A DNA stretch of 55,746 nt from Betaproteobacteria bacterium (GTDB taxonomy: Bacteria; Pseudomonadota; Gammaproteobacteria; Burkholderiales; JACQAP01), in assembly GCA_031406075.1 (NCBI GenBank), contig JANOGP010000356.1:1-55746 (forward strand), given 5' to 3'. This document shows, one piece after another, positions 4,669 through 42,371 of this stretch. The translations under genes were made by a program, and so were the position numbers. The notes beneath the pieces were generated by a model that saw only the letters and a list, made by a program, of their open reading frames with translations, made no database searches and was not told where the DNA came from. How positions within the stretch are numbered: position 1 is the stretch's first letter; each line of letters opens with the position of its first letter.

Positions 4669-4862
4669 GCCACAGAGGGCACAGAGAATTCTTCACAATA
4701 CCCCCTTGAGGGGTACACAGAGGAAAACGAAAGAGACACAAGTTGATCAAGATGCAAAGAGTCATGCAGTGCTAGCAAATTGCCACTGCCCACGCCGTTC
4801 CAGTCGCCCTTAACCCCCCAATTGCTCTTGCACTCCTCTGGGTTCTCTGTGCCCTCTGTGGC
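4669..4862. repeat. Family A fold-back element (9-mer CACAGAG arms) with 27-bp insert at 4689-4715
   Basis: Left arm GCCACAGAGGGCACAGAGAA[27]CACAGAGG; right arm CCTCTGGGTTCTCTGTGCCCTCTGTGGC; interior is an inverted homolog of 8104-8269. Confidence 0.9.
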
Positions 4863-6914: not shown

Positions 6915-7042
6915 CAGCGTGATTGCAGAGGAAAAAACGCACGGATTCTAACATGCGGGTTTTCACCGTCCCGCGCCGCGTTGGCAAGCTCAGAGCGCGA
7001 ATGGTATTCTCGCCGGGCTTACAGAGAGGGGGAGAGAAGTTC

Positions 7043-8104
7043 ATGAACGAGGAGTTCATCGGCACGATGCCGGTCCATGAGCGGCATCGCTTCGATGTTG
7101 CCAGTCTGGAACGCTATCTGCGCGAGCATGTCGCAGGCTTCTCGGGAAACCTCGAGGTCGAACAGTTCAAGGGCGGCCAGTCCAATCCCACCTTCAGGCT
7201 GACGGCGGGCGGCAAGCGCTACGTTCTGCGCCGCAAGCCGCCGGGCAAGCTGCTGCCATCGGCGCACGCAGTGGACCGGGAGTACCGCGTGATCACCGCG
7301 CTGCACGGCAGCGACGTGCCGGTGGCGAAAACCTACTGCCTGTGCGAGGACGACGCGGTGATCGGCACGGCGTTCTACATCATGGATTACGTAGAAGGCC
7401 GCGTGCTGTGGGATCCGTCGCTGCCCGGCACGAGCACGGTTCAGCGCGCGGCGTACTTCGACGAGTTGAACCGCGTGATCGCCGCGCTTCACAAAGTTGA
7501 TTACGTCCGGGCAGGCCTCACCGACTACGGCAAACCGGGCACCTACATCGAGCGGCAGATCAGCCGCTGGACCAAGCAGTACCGTGCCTCCGAAACCGAG
7601 CGCATCGAGGCGATGGAGGATCTGATCGAGTGGCTGCCGAAGAACATGCCGCCGGGCGACGAGACCACCATCGTCCATGGCGATTACCGGATGGACAACG
7701 TGATTTTTCATCCGAAGGAGCCGCGGATCCTCGCAGTGCTCGACTGGGAACTGTCCACACTTGGACATCCGCTGGCGGATATCGCGTATCACTGCATGGT
7801 CTGGCGGCTTACTCCGGGCCAGTTCCGCGGCATGAACGGAATCGACTTTCGCGCACTGGGCATACCGACCGAGGAAGAATATGTCGCCGCTTATTGCAGG
7901 CGCACCGGCAGGAATCACGTTGCGAACTGGGATTTCTACCTGGCCTACAACATGTTCCGCCTGGCAGGGATACTTCAGGGCATCATGGGCCGGGTCAAGG
8001 ACGGCACCGCGGCAAGCGCGCACGCAATGGAGCAGGGCAAGCGCGCCCGGCCCATGGCCGAAGCCGGCTGGCGCCAGGTTGAGAAGATCCTTAAGACCAA
8101 TTAG
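7043..8104 (+). CDS. APH-family phosphotransferase (ACAD10/11 N-terminal-like)
   Basis: GGQSNPT, SAHAVDREY, HGDYRMDN, LDWELSTLGHP; start refined to MNEEF. Confidence 0.92.
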   Translation: MNEEFIGTMPVHERHRFDVASLERYLREHVAGFSGNLEVEQFKGGQSNPTFRLTAGGKRYVLRRKPPGKLLPSAHAVDREYRVITALHGSDVPVAKTYCLCEDDAVIGTAFYIMDYVEGRVLWDPSLPGTSTVQRAAYFDELNRVIAALHKVDYVRAGLTDYGKPGTYIERQISRWTKQYRASETERIEAMEDLIEWLPKNMPPGDETTIVHGDYRMDNVIFHPKEPRILAVLDWELSTLGHPLADIAYHCMVWRLTPGQFRGMNGIDFRALGIPTEEEYVAAYCRRTGRNHVANWDFYLAYNMFRLAGILQGIMGRVKDGTAASAHAMEQGKRARPMAEAGWRQVEKILKTN

Positions 8105-8269
8105 CCACAGAGGACACAGAGGACACAGAGGAGAGCAAAAGCAAATTGGGGGTTAAGGGCGACGTGCAAGGTGTAGGCAGCGATACCTGCGAGCAGCGTC
8201 TGACTCGTTGCATTCTTATCAGCCTATTTCTCTTTCGTTTTCCTCTGTGCCCTCTGTGCCCTCTGTGGC
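8104..8269. repeat. Family A fold-back element directly upstream of the GxxExxY gene
   Basis: GCCACAGAG-GACACAGAG-GACACAGAG ... CTCTGTGCC-CTCTGTGCC-CTCTGTGGC; first G is the last base of the upstream TAG. Confidence 0.92.
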
Positions 8270-8292
8270 CCAAATTTCTTTGGGGTAGATAG

Positions 8293-8658
8293 ATGCCCGA
8301 CGAGTTGACGGAGCGCATTATCGGAGCGGCGGTGGAAGTTCATCGTCATCTGGGGCCAGGTTTGCTCGAGAGTATTTATGAAGAGGCGCTGACTTATGAA
8401 CTAGGATTGCGGCAGATCAAATTCGAAAGGCAAATCGCCATTGACGTCTTGTACAAAGATATTCGTATTCATGGACAGCGACTCGATTTGCTCGTCGAAA
8501 AAGAGGTTGTCGTTGAAATAAAGTCTATGAAGGCGGTTCCTGCCGTGGCTTCCGCGCAAGTGCTCTCCTATCTTAAGGCAACGGGGCTCAAGCGTGCTTT
8601 GCTGATAAATTTCTCGGAAACAAAGTTAGTCAATGGGATAAGGCGGTTCTCTCTGTGA
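8293..8658 (+). CDS. GxxExxY protein (PD-(D/E)XK nuclease-like)
   Basis: 121 aa; IIGAAVEVHRHLGPGLLESIY, RLDLLV..VVVEIK, AQVLSYLK, LLINF; more AT-rich than its neighbours. Confidence 0.93.
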   Translation: MPDELTERIIGAAVEVHRHLGPGLLESIYEEALTYELGLRQIKFERQIAIDVLYKDIRIHGQRLDLLVEKEVVVEIKSMKAVPAVASAQVLSYLKATGLKRALLINFSETKLVNGIRRFSL

Positions 8659-8677
8659 TCTCTGTGTACTCTGTGGC
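8651..8677. repeat. Family A right arm containing the GxxExxY stop codon
   Basis: CTCTGTGAT-CTCTGTGTA-CTCTGTGGC; TGA at 8656-8658 lies in the first unit. Confidence 0.9.
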
Positions 8678-8692
8678 AAGGAAAGGTTTTAG

Positions 8693-9673
8693 ATGAAAGC
8701 GGTACTGTGTAAAGAACTCGGGATGCCCGACAAGCTGGTTGTCGAGGATGTGCCTTCGCTGAAGGCTGCGAAGGGACAGGTGATCATCAACGTAAAAGCC
8801 TGCGGGGTGAATTTCCCCGATACCTTGATCATCCAGGGCAAATATCAGTTCAAGCCGGAACTGCCGTTCTCGCCCGGAGGCGAGGTTGCCGGCGTGGTCA
8901 AGGAAATCGGCGAGAGCGTGACCCGTGTCAAGCGCGGCGATAGGGTGATCGCGTTTAATACCTGGGGAGGATTTGCCGAGGAGATCGCGGTGGACGCGGA
9001 ACGTACCATCCCGATGCCGGCGGCAATGGATTTCATACCTGCTTCGGCATTCGTGCTGACCTACGGCACCTCCTATTACGCCCTAAAGGATCGTGCAGAA
9101 CTCAAAGCCGGCGAAACGTTGCTGGTGCTGGGGGCTGCGGGCGGGGTGGGCCTCGCCGCGGTACAGCTGGGCAAGGCGATGGGCGCAAAGGTCATCGCGG
9201 CAGCCTCGAACGATGCCAAACTGCAGATCTGCAGACAGAATGGCGCCGATGCGGTGATCAACTACGGCACCGAAGACCTGCGCGCACGGATCAAGGTTCT
9301 TACCGCGGGCAAGGGAGTGGACGTCGTGTATGACCCGGTCGGCGGACCGTACTCGGAGCCGGCCTTGCGCGACATGGCGTGGAATGGCCGCTTCCTGGTG
9401 GTCGGCTTCGCCGCCGGCGACATTCCCAAGGTACCGCTGAATCTGACCCTGCTGAAGGGCTGTTCCATCGTCGGCGTGTTCTGGGGCGCGTTCACAAAGA
9501 ATGAACCCGAGCGCAATCGGGAAAACAACTTTGACCTGATGGCAATGTATGCGGCGGCCAAGGTCAGGCCGCATATCCACGCCACCTATCCGCTGGAGCG
9601 CGCCTCGGAAGCACTTAACGAAGTTCTCAACAAGCGCGTCACCGGCAAGGTTGTTCTGGTGACAGGTAAATAA
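8693..9673 (+). CDS. NADPH:quinone oxidoreductase (MDR family)
   Basis: GVNFPD, PFSPGGEVAG, LGAAGGVG, GKVVL. Confidence 0.93.
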   Translation: MKAVLCKELGMPDKLVVEDVPSLKAAKGQVIINVKACGVNFPDTLIIQGKYQFKPELPFSPGGEVAGVVKEIGESVTRVKRGDRVIAFNTWGGFAEEIAVDAERTIPMPAAMDFIPASAFVLTYGTSYYALKDRAELKAGETLLVLGAAGGVGLAAVQLGKAMGAKVIAAASNDAKLQICRQNGADAVINYGTEDLRARIKVLTAGKGVDVVYDPVGGPYSEPALRDMAWNGRFLVVGFAAGDIPKVPLNLTLLKGCSIVGVFWGAFTKNEPERNRENNFDLMAMYAAAKVRPHIHATYPLERASEALNEVLNKRVTGKVVLVTGK

Positions 9674-9677
9674 ACCT

Positions 9678-9845
9678 TTTCACCGCAAAGGCGCAAAGGA
9701 CGCAAAGAAGAACAAAAACAGGCAAATGTGAAAATCGCACAGGCTGCGGATTTAGAATCATGGACGAATATCGTTCTTGTTTGCATGTTCCTTGTATTTC
9801 ACAATTTTCGTTTTCCTTTGCGTTCTTTGCGCCTTTGCGGTGAAA
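9678..9845. repeat. Family B fold-back element (CGCAAAG arms)
   Basis: TTTCACCGCAAAGGCGCAAAGGACGCAAAG ... CTTTGCGTTCTTTGCGCCTTTGCGGTGAAA. Confidence 0.9.
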
Positions 9846-13874: not shown

Positions 13875-13976
13875 GGTGAATGGTGAGGGGTGAGCGGTGA
13901 GGAGTGAGGAATAGACCAAGCCTCGCTCCTTTTGTCGTCCTTCGTGTACCCCTCGAGGGCGTATTGAAAAGTATCC
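13875..13976. repeat. Heptamer tandem array (RGTGARN x5) plus degenerate family A arm with 27-bp cassette
   Basis: GGTGAAT GGTGAGG GGTGAGC GGTGAGG AGTGAGG at 13875-13909; TACCCCTCGAGGGCGTATTGAAAAGTA at 13947-13973 (22/27 to the cassette). Confidence 0.75.
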
Positions 13977-27275: not shown

Positions 27276-27470
27276 GCCACAGAGGACACAGAGAACACAG
27301 AGGAAAAACAAGAACCAGGAAAAGCAGGTTGTGAATAAAGGCGAGGTAAATGTTCGCAAACTCGTGCCGCCAATTTTTGCTGCAATGGATCATGAGCCAA
27401 TGCAAGATTCTTGCCCCAGTTTATTTTCTTGCTCTTGCCCTTCCTCTGTTTCCTCTGTGTTCTCTGTGGC
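27276..27470. repeat. Family A fold-back element (no 27-bp insert)
   Basis: GCCACAGAGGACACAGAGAACACAGAGG ... CCTCTGTTTCCTCTGTGTTCTCTGTGGC. Confidence 0.9.
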
Positions 27471-36080: not shown

Positions 36081-36106
36081 AGGCGAGAGGCGAGAGGCGA
36101 GAGGCG
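36081..36106 (+). repeat. Heptamer tandem repeat (AGGCGAG x3 plus partial)
   Basis: AGGCGAG AGGCGAG AGGCGAG AGGCG, just after the permease stop. Confidence 0.8.
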
Positions 36107-39840: not shown

Positions 39841-39861
39841 AGTGAGGGGTGAGGAGTGAGG
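39841..39861 (+). repeat. Heptamer tandem repeat (RGTGAGG x3)
   Basis: AGTGAGG GGTGAGG AGTGAGG, 10 nt after a stop codon. Confidence 0.7.
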
Positions 39862-40711: not shown

Positions 40712-40889
40712 CCGTGACGGCGTGACGATCGTGACGAAGTAAGGTCACTTACGCTGACGATTCTTGTCCATAGTCGACGCCCGAAAGCGGGTGCGGCAGC
40801 GCAACCACAATGCATGAGTAAGGCTAGTCATTCGCGCTTTATGTTTGACGTTCCTCGTCACGCCGTCACGTCGTCACGCCGTCACGTCA
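40712..40889. repeat. Family C fold-back element (CGTGACG arms)
   Basis: CCGTGACGGCGTGACGATCGTGACGA ... TCGTCACGCCGTCACGTCGTCACGCCGTCACGTCA. Confidence 0.85.
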
Positions 40890-42175: not shown

Positions 42176-42371
42176 TTCACCGCAAAGACGCAAAGGCGCA
42201 AAGGAAACGCAGAGAAAACCAAACGAAACGTGTCAAAAAGCGGGGGATTCCGATTTGCCCCAGCCAGTCGATATATCGCGGTGCCGCGACTATCCACCTC
42301 TTTGCTTTTTAACCTCAAGTTGTTTTGCTTTTCTTTGCGTTTCCTTTGCGCCTTTGCGTCTTTGCGGTGAA
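42176..42371. repeat. Family B fold-back element
   Basis: 43-bp inverted arms with one mismatch: TTCACCGCAAAGACGCAAAGGCGCAAAGGAAACGCA(G/A)AGAAAA. Confidence 0.93.

Follow-up and report, generated by a model that had tools for sequence, protein, structure and literature searches.

In REPIN/RAYT systems, a low-copy gene lies between inverted copies of the repeat that belongs to it, gene-less inverted doublets whose spacer is less conserved are numerous in intergenic DNA, several gene/repeat pairs, each with its own repeat, occur in one genome, and the association persists vertically over long times (PMC3337134; 10.1101/2022.05.22.493013). Here we analyze an element of comparable arrangement that is located in a 55,746-nucleotide stretch of DNA from a Betaproteobacteria bacterium (referred to in the following as the window). 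It carries the gene for a small protein of the GxxExxY family (PF13366, PDDEXK_3) within inverted arrays of a short repeat. Judged by its sequence, it is the gene-bearing copy of a widespread, compact fold-back element: each arm consists of at least three 7-nt cores (C-R-C-R-R-A-G; here CACAGAG) positioned every 8–10 nt, the two arms are inverted, and the loop contains the nuclease gene and almost nothing else. We give about an even chance to the interpretation that this is a REPIN/RAYT-like system, in which the nuclease would bind and cut its own repeat arrays and would thereby propagate or maintain both gene-bearing and gene-less copies.

The likeness to REPIN/RAYT pairs is considerable. The gene is flanked by inverted copies of a dispersed repeat, gene-less doublets are present in excess, several gene/repeat pairs, each with its own repeat, are found in one genome, and long vertical persistence is seen. 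However, the enzyme is a 121-amino-acid PD-(D/E)XK protein and not an HUH Y1 (IS200/IS605-like) transposase, each arm repeats a non-palindromic 7-nt core in tandem with an 8–10-nt period and is not a single imperfectly palindromic REP, and horizontal transfer across phyla is evident for the GxxExxY element. We also considered a RAYT as the mobilising enzyme and rejected it, as none of the three HUH Y1 (Y1_Tnp) genes of the genome has CRCRRAG arms within 900 nt. Lacking an HUH enzyme as well as a palindromic REP, and residing in a genome whose Y1 genes are not flanked by arms, the element is REPIN/RAYT-like in its arrangement but is not a member of that family.

Pairs of transposases and MITEs (miniature inverted-repeat transposable elements) offer a second comparison: here, too, gene-bearing and gene-less copies share their ends, reside between genes, and are present or absent in different relatives. 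The GxxExxY element differs from MITEs and insertion sequences in that no target-site duplication is seen at its inverted ends, from transposase/MITE pairs in that it encodes neither a DDE nor any other transposase, and from MITEs in that most gene-less copies share the arms only and are not internal-deletion derivatives. The 23S rRNA intervening sequences, which are processed by RNase III, likewise enclose a small ORF (PF05635, Avd-like) by inverted repeats. The element studied here lies between protein-coding genes and not in an rRNA helix, its ORF belongs to PF13366 and not to PF05635, and its period is 8–10 nt instead of 7 nt. Inverted ends built from tandem short repeats, which serve as multiple binding sites of element proteins where their role is known, are also a property of eukaryotic foldback (FB) elements, of the subterminal arrays of Ac/Ds and CACTA elements, and of the ends of Tn7 and Mu; their sequences, sizes, hosts, and enzymes are unrelated to those of the GxxExxY element, and the resemblance is one of analogy only.

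Finally, intergenic heptamer arrays have been reported from Xanthomonas and Nostoc (GGGNATC) and from Beggiatoaceae (TAACTGA); they lie near stop codons, are under-represented between divergent genes, and form 70 and 75 convergent pairs in two Xanthomonas genomes. In the accessible parts of these reports, the arrays are read as G-quadruplex or translational signals and are connected neither with mobile elements nor with a gene enclosed by them (PMC4692102; PMC4679880). They share with the GxxExxY arms the short tandem units in intergenic DNA near stop codons, the scarcity between divergent genes, and the occurrence of convergent pairs, but differ in being 7-mers, a class that we tie here to PF05635. 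Our literature search of open papers retrieved no description of GxxExxY biology or of this architecture, with subscription journals, supplements, and curated family notes outside its reach; to this extent the system appears to be undescribed, as a first-pass annotation made from the letters of the window alone had proposed.

GxxExxY Genes Are Mostly Bracketed by Inverted Periodic Arms

According to the first-pass annotation, the element consists of a left (L) arm, a spacer, a right (R) arm, the GxxExxY ORF, and a second right arm that supplies the TGA stop codon of the gene. This layout can be read directly in the sequence (Table 1). Tolerating one mismatch, we counted 15 occurrences of the two-unit pattern CACAGAGNNCACAGAG in the window where 0.01 are expected, and none of 100 shuffles reached this count. 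The annotation had also noted that the element begins with the last base of the upstream stop codon, and the G at position 8104 is indeed both the final base of the TAG of the APH-family kinase gene and the first base of the left arm; conserved termini, however, extend the element by about 12 nt beyond the arms on either side. The outer left and outer right arms form the canonical pair, while the inner right arm has a non-canonical outer flank (CCCAAA). The fold-back upstream of the gene that results from this additional inner arm recurs in 4 of the 15 closest homologs. Equally well founded was the statement that the ORF is richer in AT than the co-oriented housekeeping genes around it: its GC content is 48.6% against 61.8 and 59.7% in the neighbors, and at third codon positions 54% against 80 and 74%.

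The genome from which the window derives (3.59 Mb in 427 contigs; a fragmented draft, 96% complete) contains three PF13366 genes. Each of them lies between periodic arms in inverted orientation, and the cores differ from gene to gene (CACAGAG in the window, CGCAAAG and CGCCAAGG at the other two loci). To look beyond this genome, we collected GxxExxY loci with a pattern-plus-tblastn scan based on two peptide patterns and one genome per species, and evaluated the best 80 of at least 592 loci. Their titles name Planctomycetota, Acidobacteriota, Chloroflexota, Bacteroidota, Ignavibacteria, Leptospirales, a cyanobacterium, and several proteobacterial groups, as well as two archaeal sources, Methanothrix and a Methanophagaceae archaeon. 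With control windows taken from the same loci as the genes, at least two CRCRRAG units were found on at least one flank of 79 of 79 genes (127 of 2889 control windows), on both flanks in any orientation at 62 of 79 (1 of 2889), and in forward orientation upstream combined with reverse orientation downstream at 50 of 79 (1 of 2889). A strict test, which demands two copies of one 6-mer at a given period upstream and, with the same period, two copies of its reverse complement downstream, was passed by 30 of 78 genes and by 2 of 2694 control windows; on reading, most of the failing loci do possess arms, which are imperfect or follow another arrangement. Arms and ORF lie close together, with a median distance of 17 nt from the left arm to the start codon (n = 54) and of 8 nt from the stop codon to the right arm (n = 63). 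An 8-nt overlap that places the stop codon inside the first unit, as in the window, was seen at 7 of the 63 loci.

An independent sample, drawn from PF13366 matches in 150 genomes of the phylum to which the window belongs, gave a corresponding picture: 16 of 25 testable loci passed the both-flank test, as opposed to 1 of 299 controls. When the nine failing loci were read by eye, eight proved to have periodic inverted arms made of variant cores (CGCAGAT, CACGGAA, CACTAAG, CACGAAT, CGCGAAT, and CACCAAG) and one to have none. The check proposed in the first-pass annotation, a scan of the flanks of GxxExxY genes for tandem CRCRRAG units, was thus positive. Its further check, whether repeat number tracks the presence of the gene, was mostly positive as well. 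When the 81 genomes of the order were divided into arm-rich (at least 10 matches to a three-unit arm pattern) and arm-poor ones, the gene was present in 10 of 18 arm-rich but in only 1 of 63 arm-poor genomes (Fisher p 2e-7, calculated over relatives that are not independent); the remaining eight arm-rich genomes do not follow this trend.

The GxxExxY Protein Is a Predicted Minimal Nuclease

The protein encoded in the window matches the profiles PF13366 (E 1.7e-39; 135.3 bits with a cut-off of 22) and TIGR04256 (E 6.9e-40; 136 bits with a cut-off of 35). It contains the family motif G23-L-L-E26-S-I-Y29 and the predicted catalytic residues D65 and E75-x-K77; in an alignment of 84 sequences, E26, Y29, E75, and K77 are invariant, and D65 is conserved in at least 90%. 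The AF2 model is of high quality (pLDDT 95.4; pTM 0.88). Foldseek searches of the Protein Data Bank (PDB) with this model yielded weak matches throughout, the best being Cas4 SSO0001 (E 3.7e-3; TM 0.48–0.55), followed by lambda exonuclease, MGME1, and tRNA-splicing endonucleases, and a sequence search of PDB chains gave no match to the protein at E up to 1. By its profiles and model, the GxxExxY protein adopts a PD-(D/E)XK fold with an alpha-beta-beta-beta-alpha-beta core; its conserved residues and the substitution pattern given below mark it as an active-looking, minimal nuclease kept by selection, as are its arms. This agrees with its first-pass description as a small PD-(D/E)XK-fold protein of unknown biological role; a survey of the PD-(D/E)XK superfamily gives PF13366 as 'Unknown' (PMC3424549).

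A homodimer prediction for the protein scored 0.01, a value that we count neither as support for a dimer nor against it. The sole hint at dimerization comes from tandem two-domain GxxExxY proteins of 250–295 amino acids (P0001 with 293 residues, P0002, P0004, and about 20 others); with its second domain devoid of the E-x-K residues, P0001 is likely to be a pseudo-dimer that arose by fusion. The family as a whole is large, with 18,083 clusters at 50% identity (E up to 0.001), or 4,649 at E up to 1e-10. Many database entries possess N-terminal extensions that are nothing but the translated left arm (e.g., P0003, P0018, P0035, and P0050 with MNATENTGSTEN, MNRQDAEGAKK, or GAQGAQGA), and further spurious peptides of this kind read TENTGSTEN and NRQDAxxAK. 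For annotation this means that gene callers run GxxExxY ORFs through the left arm, and that the artefact peptides mark arms in protein databases.

Gene-Less Fold-Backs Share Arms but Seldom Loops

Gene-less copies of the arms occur across the window, as the first-pass annotation had stated, and we list five of them in Table 1. A tolerant scan of the whole genome (at least three units with a period of 8–10 nt) detected 183 left and 188 right arm clusters that form 141 pairs, 124 of which have loops of 61–250 nt. In 120 of 139 pairs the majority core of one arm is also that of the other, and the pairs fall into the core families CACAGAG (48), CGCAAAG (43), CACCAAG (22), CACGAAG (14), and CGCAGAG (10). 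About 140 fold-backs thus face three genes, an approximately 50-fold excess of gene-less copies. When 28 copies were aligned, the arms were nearly identical and the loops unalignable. Beyond the arms, 47 CACAGAG copies possess conserved termini, AAaccttTTAG/CC...GG/CAAAaAggtTT (the slash marks the border of the arm), a consensus drawn from the 31 copies that could be oriented through a single consistent asymmetry (A at either side, or T at either side when the copy is turned round).

The gene-less copy at 27277–27469 has dozens of full-length counterparts with 68–83% identity in three relatives (G010, G011, and G012). At least one gene-less sub-family therefore appears to have been amplified as a whole unit; others may be older. 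Two CGCAAAG fold-backs elsewhere in the genome (C95:1332-1750 and C248:5575-5915) have unusually long loops of 373 and 293 nt, respectively, that are devoid of a long ORF, and the former loop holds a further G/C-rich inverted repeat.

Orthologous Sites Are Gained, Lost, and Refilled

The first-pass annotation had proposed a search for empty APH-qor junctions in relatives. Such junctions exist: in 16 relatives with both genes adjacent (three loci were dropped because qor is not adjacent), five junctions are empty (13–65 nt), six have fold-backs that are degenerate or lack a gene and that differ in arm type (CGCAAAG, CGCAGAG, and CACAGAGA), and five hold a complete L-GxxExxY-R element with CACGAAGG arms, whose protein is 36–42% identical to that of the window. 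The site of the fold-back at 4670–4861 is empty (14 nt) in G001 and is occupied by an element of the CACGAAGG type in G012. At the corresponding site of G011 (L102:2230-2935), CGCAAAGG arms enclose an unrelated small ORF, followed by a gene-less fold-back, and we conclude from this arrangement that the arms can apparently carry cargo other than GxxExxY or PF05635 genes. The enclosed ORF begins with MKILNRLLAGFLATS and looks secreted. At the site of the 27277–27469 copy, orthologous but partly decayed copies are present in G011 and G003, none is present in G001, and G012 has a CGCAAAG-type arm. By this comparison, empty sites exist, and the same intergenic positions are occupied repeatedly, with gain, loss, and refilling between species.

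The insertion in the window appears to have rewritten the end of the APH gene, since the left terminus of the element encodes the C-terminal end of the kinase and provides its stop codon. Among relatives, the residues that follow ...ILK at the APH C-terminus vary (TN*, S*, NGTA*, N*, and GS*; L002–L017). The element offers no space for its own promoter; it is probably transcribed by read-through from the host operon. We found no intron or intein context for the nuclease gene at this locus, and Rfam-type searches of the element returned only matches to miRNA/sRNA-type hairpins that stayed below threshold (31.2 bits with a gathering score of 96).

Gene and arms are inherited, and transferred horizontally, as one unit. 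The window protein is 63–69% identical to proteins of distant phyla, and in a tree of 84 proteins it falls into a clade of 16 rows (SH-aLRT 97) that all have CACAGAG arms. Over the entire tree, the arm type changes 22 times, compared with 36.3 times after shuffling, and none of 200 shuffles gave a number as low. Such clustering of arm type by protein clade would be predicted by co-inheritance and by specific recognition alike. A 364-nt contig in a sediment run of another study (X3) is identical to positions 8258–8621, while the flanking genes match there at only about 87%; this single contig hints at recent transfer. Plasmids seldom carry the gene (among 72,556 records, 8 match, all of them typed non-mobilizable), and phage records contained no match to GxxExxY at E up to 1e-5. 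Public runs aligned to 7600–9200 consist of DNA contigs throughout and are thus uninformative about RNA; their depth peaks on the arms. The many joints between left and right arms with other letters in between are not excision products but stem from other elements of the community. Periodic arms of this type break assemblies.

The five orthologous CACGAAGG elements allowed us to assess selection. The ratio of non-synonymous to synonymous substitutions (dN/dS) is 0.06–0.11 in the 8 of 10 pairs with computable dS, and the proportion of synonymous sites that differ (pS) amounts to 0.49–0.73 in these eight pairs and up to 0.80 in two saturated ones. Although synonymous sites are at or near saturation, the arm cores are unchanged in all five elements, whereas the linkers differ. 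Arm cores and nuclease active site are both under strong purifying selection.

A Second Protein Family Has Its Own Arms

The genome contains seven matches to PF05635 ('23S rRNA intervening sequence protein'), a family of four-helix bundles, at six loci. All six are flanked by inverted, imperfect arms of 7-nt units on reading (GAGGNGN, TAGGGNC, GAAGGAT, and CGAGGTG); an automated detector of exact repeats flagged two of them. These very arm units also make up the 7-nt arrays that the genome contains in greatest number. Of 23 PF05635 loci that could be tested in 150 genomes of the phylum, 14 passed the strict test for inverted arms of equal period (the period being 7 in 12 cases), compared with 2 of 213 controls, and the failing loci mostly show imperfect heptamer arms on reading. 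One architecture thus accommodates two unrelated small proteins that differ in period (7 nt with PF05635, 8–10 nt with GxxExxY), an argument for the protein as the factor that sets it. A CGTCACG array with an 8-nt period at 40856–40886 of the window stands outside both core families; an arm of the related GTGACGAGGTG type is found next to the PF05635 gene of contig C291.

Table 1. Positions of the element, its parts and neighbors, and of related features in the window and on other contigs (C) of the same genome.
Feature	Position	Strand	Remarks
APH-family kinase gene	6923–8104	+	upstream neighbor
Whole element	8093–8689	+	bounds set by the conserved termini
Left terminus AAGACCAATTAGC	8093–8105	+	fits the outer consensus AAacc..TTAG/CC; holds the APH stop codon TAG (8102–8104)
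Left arm GCCACAGAG-GACACAGAG-GACACAGAG	8104–8130	+	three tandem 9-nt units, (GC)CACAGAG-GA-CACAGAG-GA-CACAGAG
Spacer (loop of upstream fold-back)	8131–8240	+	110 nt; no ORF or known RNA family
Inner right arm CCTCTGTGC-CCTCTGTGC-CCTCTGTGGC	8242–8269	+	read as units CCTCTGTG-C-CCTCTGTG-C-CCTCTGTGGC; extra internal arm
Leader from inner arm to ATG	8270–8292	+	too short for a promoter of its own
GxxExxY/PDDEXK_3 gene	8293–8658	+	121 amino acids; PF13366 and TIGR04256 matches
Outer right arm CTCTGTGAT-CTCTGTGTA-CTCTGTGGC	8651–8677	+	CTCTGTG-AT-CTCTGTG-TA-CTCTGTGGC; TGA of the gene (8656–8658) within the first unit
Right terminus AAGGAAAGGTTT	8678–8689	+	fits the canonical end CAAAaAggtTT; pairs with 8093–8098
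qor gene (zinc-type alcohol dehydrogenase/quinone oxidoreductase-like)	8693–9673	+	downstream neighbor; ATG at 8693
Gene-less CACAGAG fold-back	4670–4861		unique spacer; arm pattern scan
Gene-less CGCAAAG-type fold-back	9681–9842		directly 3' of qor
Gene-less CACAGAG fold-back	27277–27469		arm pattern scan
Gene-less CGCAAAG fold-back	42181–42366		8-nt period
CACAGAG left arm with decayed right arm	43817–43912		gene-less; arm pattern scan
7-nt array	13882–13901		
7-nt array	36081–36106		
7-nt array	39842–39861		
PF13366 gene, CGCAAAG core	C35:8063-8410		
PF13366 gene, CGCCAAGG core	C43:699-1046		
PF05635 locus	C291:3156-3470		
PF05635 locus	C139:13214-13528		
PF05635 locus	C4:5442-5732		
PF05635 locus	C182:3204-3518		
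PF05635 locus	C101:6075-6365		
PF05635 locus	C342:4135-4426		

Discussion

In the interpretation to which we give an even chance, the periodic cores would be binding and cleavage sites of the encoded nuclease, with roughly one protomer per unit. The enzyme would act in cis and in trans on arms that are folded (as hairpin or cruciform) or single-stranded, and its action would propagate or maintain its own copy together with the gene-less satellites. Because a PD-(D/E)XK enzyme cuts but cannot join, host repair or replication would have to complete an insertion.

A number of observations weigh against this proposal. No direct duplication of target DNA was detected outside the termini of 47 copies, the empty and filled sites being too diverged for a base-level reading. 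The loops of gene-less copies are mostly unrelated: among 52 spacers, the largest similarity cluster has seven members, followed by clusters of 3, 2, 2, 2, and 2 and about 34 singletons, where unrelated mostly means not alignable under a strict clustering threshold. A profile search of the six-frame translations of 42 gene-less loops for GxxExxY remnants found none (best score 0.8 bits); random control segments reached up to 2.9 bits, and one that lay inside a real gene gave 19.8 bits, so the method is sensitive. Given both the missing remnants and the unrelated loops, we rejected the idea that gene-less copies are decayed genes or simple deletion derivatives. Of the autonomous-plus-satellite architecture that the first-pass annotation had in mind, the unit of gene and arms and the excess of gene-less copies stand; the lack of visible target-site duplications and of gene remnants in the spacers speaks against a simple transposase/MITE pair.

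Other difficulties concern the correspondence between genes and arms. Two core families with 22 and 14 pairs, CACCAAG and CACGAAG, are without a cognate gene in the 96% complete assembly. Of the eight arm-rich genomes that yielded no PF13366 match, five are at least 99% complete, and one of the gene-less arm-rich genomes belongs to the same genus, is 100% complete, and has 177 arm matches. Our cross-phylum sample is biased toward relatives of the query, and the layouts within it vary. The long residence of the CACGAAGG element at one site in five species, under purifying selection, is unusual for an active transposon and is more in the style of a RAYT. Furthermore, the non-nuclease PF05635 protein shares the architecture, which argues that nuclease chemistry alone cannot be its general explanation.

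Three alternatives deserve attention. The arms could function at the RNA level: as a stem in read-through transcripts they would be cut by RNase III in the manner of 23S rRNA intervening sequences, the gene would be a passenger made harmless within the operon, and the job of its protein would be unrelated to the arms. As DNA, the left arm and the inner right arm indeed pair to form a hairpin that is long but interrupted (-43.1 kcal/mol; z -5.56), and the whole element folds strongly as RNA (-221 kcal/mol; z -3.55). It lies between co-oriented genes with no space for a promoter, its arms abut start and stop codons, and PF05635, the family named for 23S rRNA intervening sequences, has the same layout. 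Of 38 CACAGAG copies with both neighbors called, 26 lie between co-oriented, 11 between convergent, and 1 between divergent genes (by a rough ORF heuristic); relative to the co-oriented genes, 12 elements point in the opposite and 5 in the same direction, a difference that is not significant and derives from a crude longest-ORF heuristic in a genome of 61% GC. Against this reading, the linkers do not covary: in 37 CACAGAG copies, 27 of 74 linker nucleotides match between left and right arms where 26.9 are expected, and 1089 of 2000 shuffles equal or exceed this value. Each 7-bp helix is thus broken by unselected 2x2 loops, and selection acts on the 7-nt core and its spacing and not on a continuous stem. 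With the period tracking the protein family (7 versus 8–10 nt), with cores conserved across phyla together with the protein clade and free of compensatory drift, and with the tandem-repeat form of the arms and the spread of copies left unexplained, we consider an RNA-level cassette unlikely.

In a homing scenario, the fold-backs would be an independent repeat family that a selfish GxxExxY nuclease cuts and into which its gene is copied, so that the arms would be the target and not the product of the system. Directly duplicated arms around the gene speak for this scenario and are seen in the window (R-gene-R') and in the cross-phylum sample as L-g-L (3/80) and LR-g-LR (3/80), next to R-g-L layouts; the compact L-gene-R layout, however, is the commonest (37/80), and the junction between stop codon and arm is kept across phyla. 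The absence of gene remnants from gene-less loops, the 8 of 18 arm-rich genomes without the gene, and the identical gene with diverged flanks in another metagenome would all suit an invader of this kind. Homing genes are expected to pass through a cycle of gain, decay, and loss, and the vertical persistence of the element at one site with a dN/dS of about 0.08 is at odds with it. The agreement between arm type and protein clade speaks against homing as well, though it is compatible with both readings. Overall, we judge a homing-type origin to be improbable.

The third alternative is domestication. Protein and dispersed arms would then form a host-level system, for instance one of nuclease-guided processing or regulation at intergenic sites, that is kept by host selection and whose copies no longer move. 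The low dN/dS values and the unchanged cores at one orthologous site in five species, in spite of saturated synonymous sites, are in keeping with such a role, and so are the low copy number of the gene (three per genome) and the positions just 3' of genes. RAYTs, too, have been described as vertically inherited single-copy genes in two studies (10.1101/2022.05.22.493013; 10.1101/119735). A settled host function is difficult to reconcile with the patchy distribution of PF13366 (within the order, 11 of 81 genomes have it; within the phylum, 25 of 151), with transfer across phyla and a foreign codon composition, and with the turnover in presence and arm type at three orthologous sites; we see only a small chance that domestication accounts for the data. 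Chance juxtaposition or an assembly artefact, to which a draft of 427 contigs and the tendency of repeats to break assemblies might have pointed, is effectively refuted by the shuffles (0/100 reached the observed pattern count), by the same architecture at 80 + 25 loci of other assemblies, including long contigs and complete chromosomes, and by a 1360-nt contig from a public run that covers 8238–9200 without a difference.

Returning to a nuclease that acts on its own arms, we tentatively place it in a wider frame, which we regard as possible rather than probable. GxxExxY elements and those of the four-helix-bundle family would each represent a branch of a single, unrecognised class of replicators that persist for long times within bacterial and archaeal genomes. 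In each branch, a very small protein that is no transposase would specify the core and the period of the arms (7 nt for PF05635, 8–10 nt for PF13366), would coat or cut the arrays on folded or single-stranded nucleic acid, and would maintain and spread hundreds of gene-less satellites with drifting loops. The abundant 'mysterious' 7–9-nt tandem repeats between the genes of many genomes would be the footprints of this class.

For the GxxExxY family, the tie of almost every sampled member to a defined DNA architecture yields a concrete hypothesis, namely that its own arms are the substrate of the protein. The same link offers an origin for the short tandem arrays of 7–10 nt that have been reported from intergenic DNA and left unexplained. 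If the nuclease does act on its arms, the GxxExxY element would represent a second, mechanistically independent gene-plus-satellite lifestyle beside REPIN/RAYT, and one that is also found in archaea.

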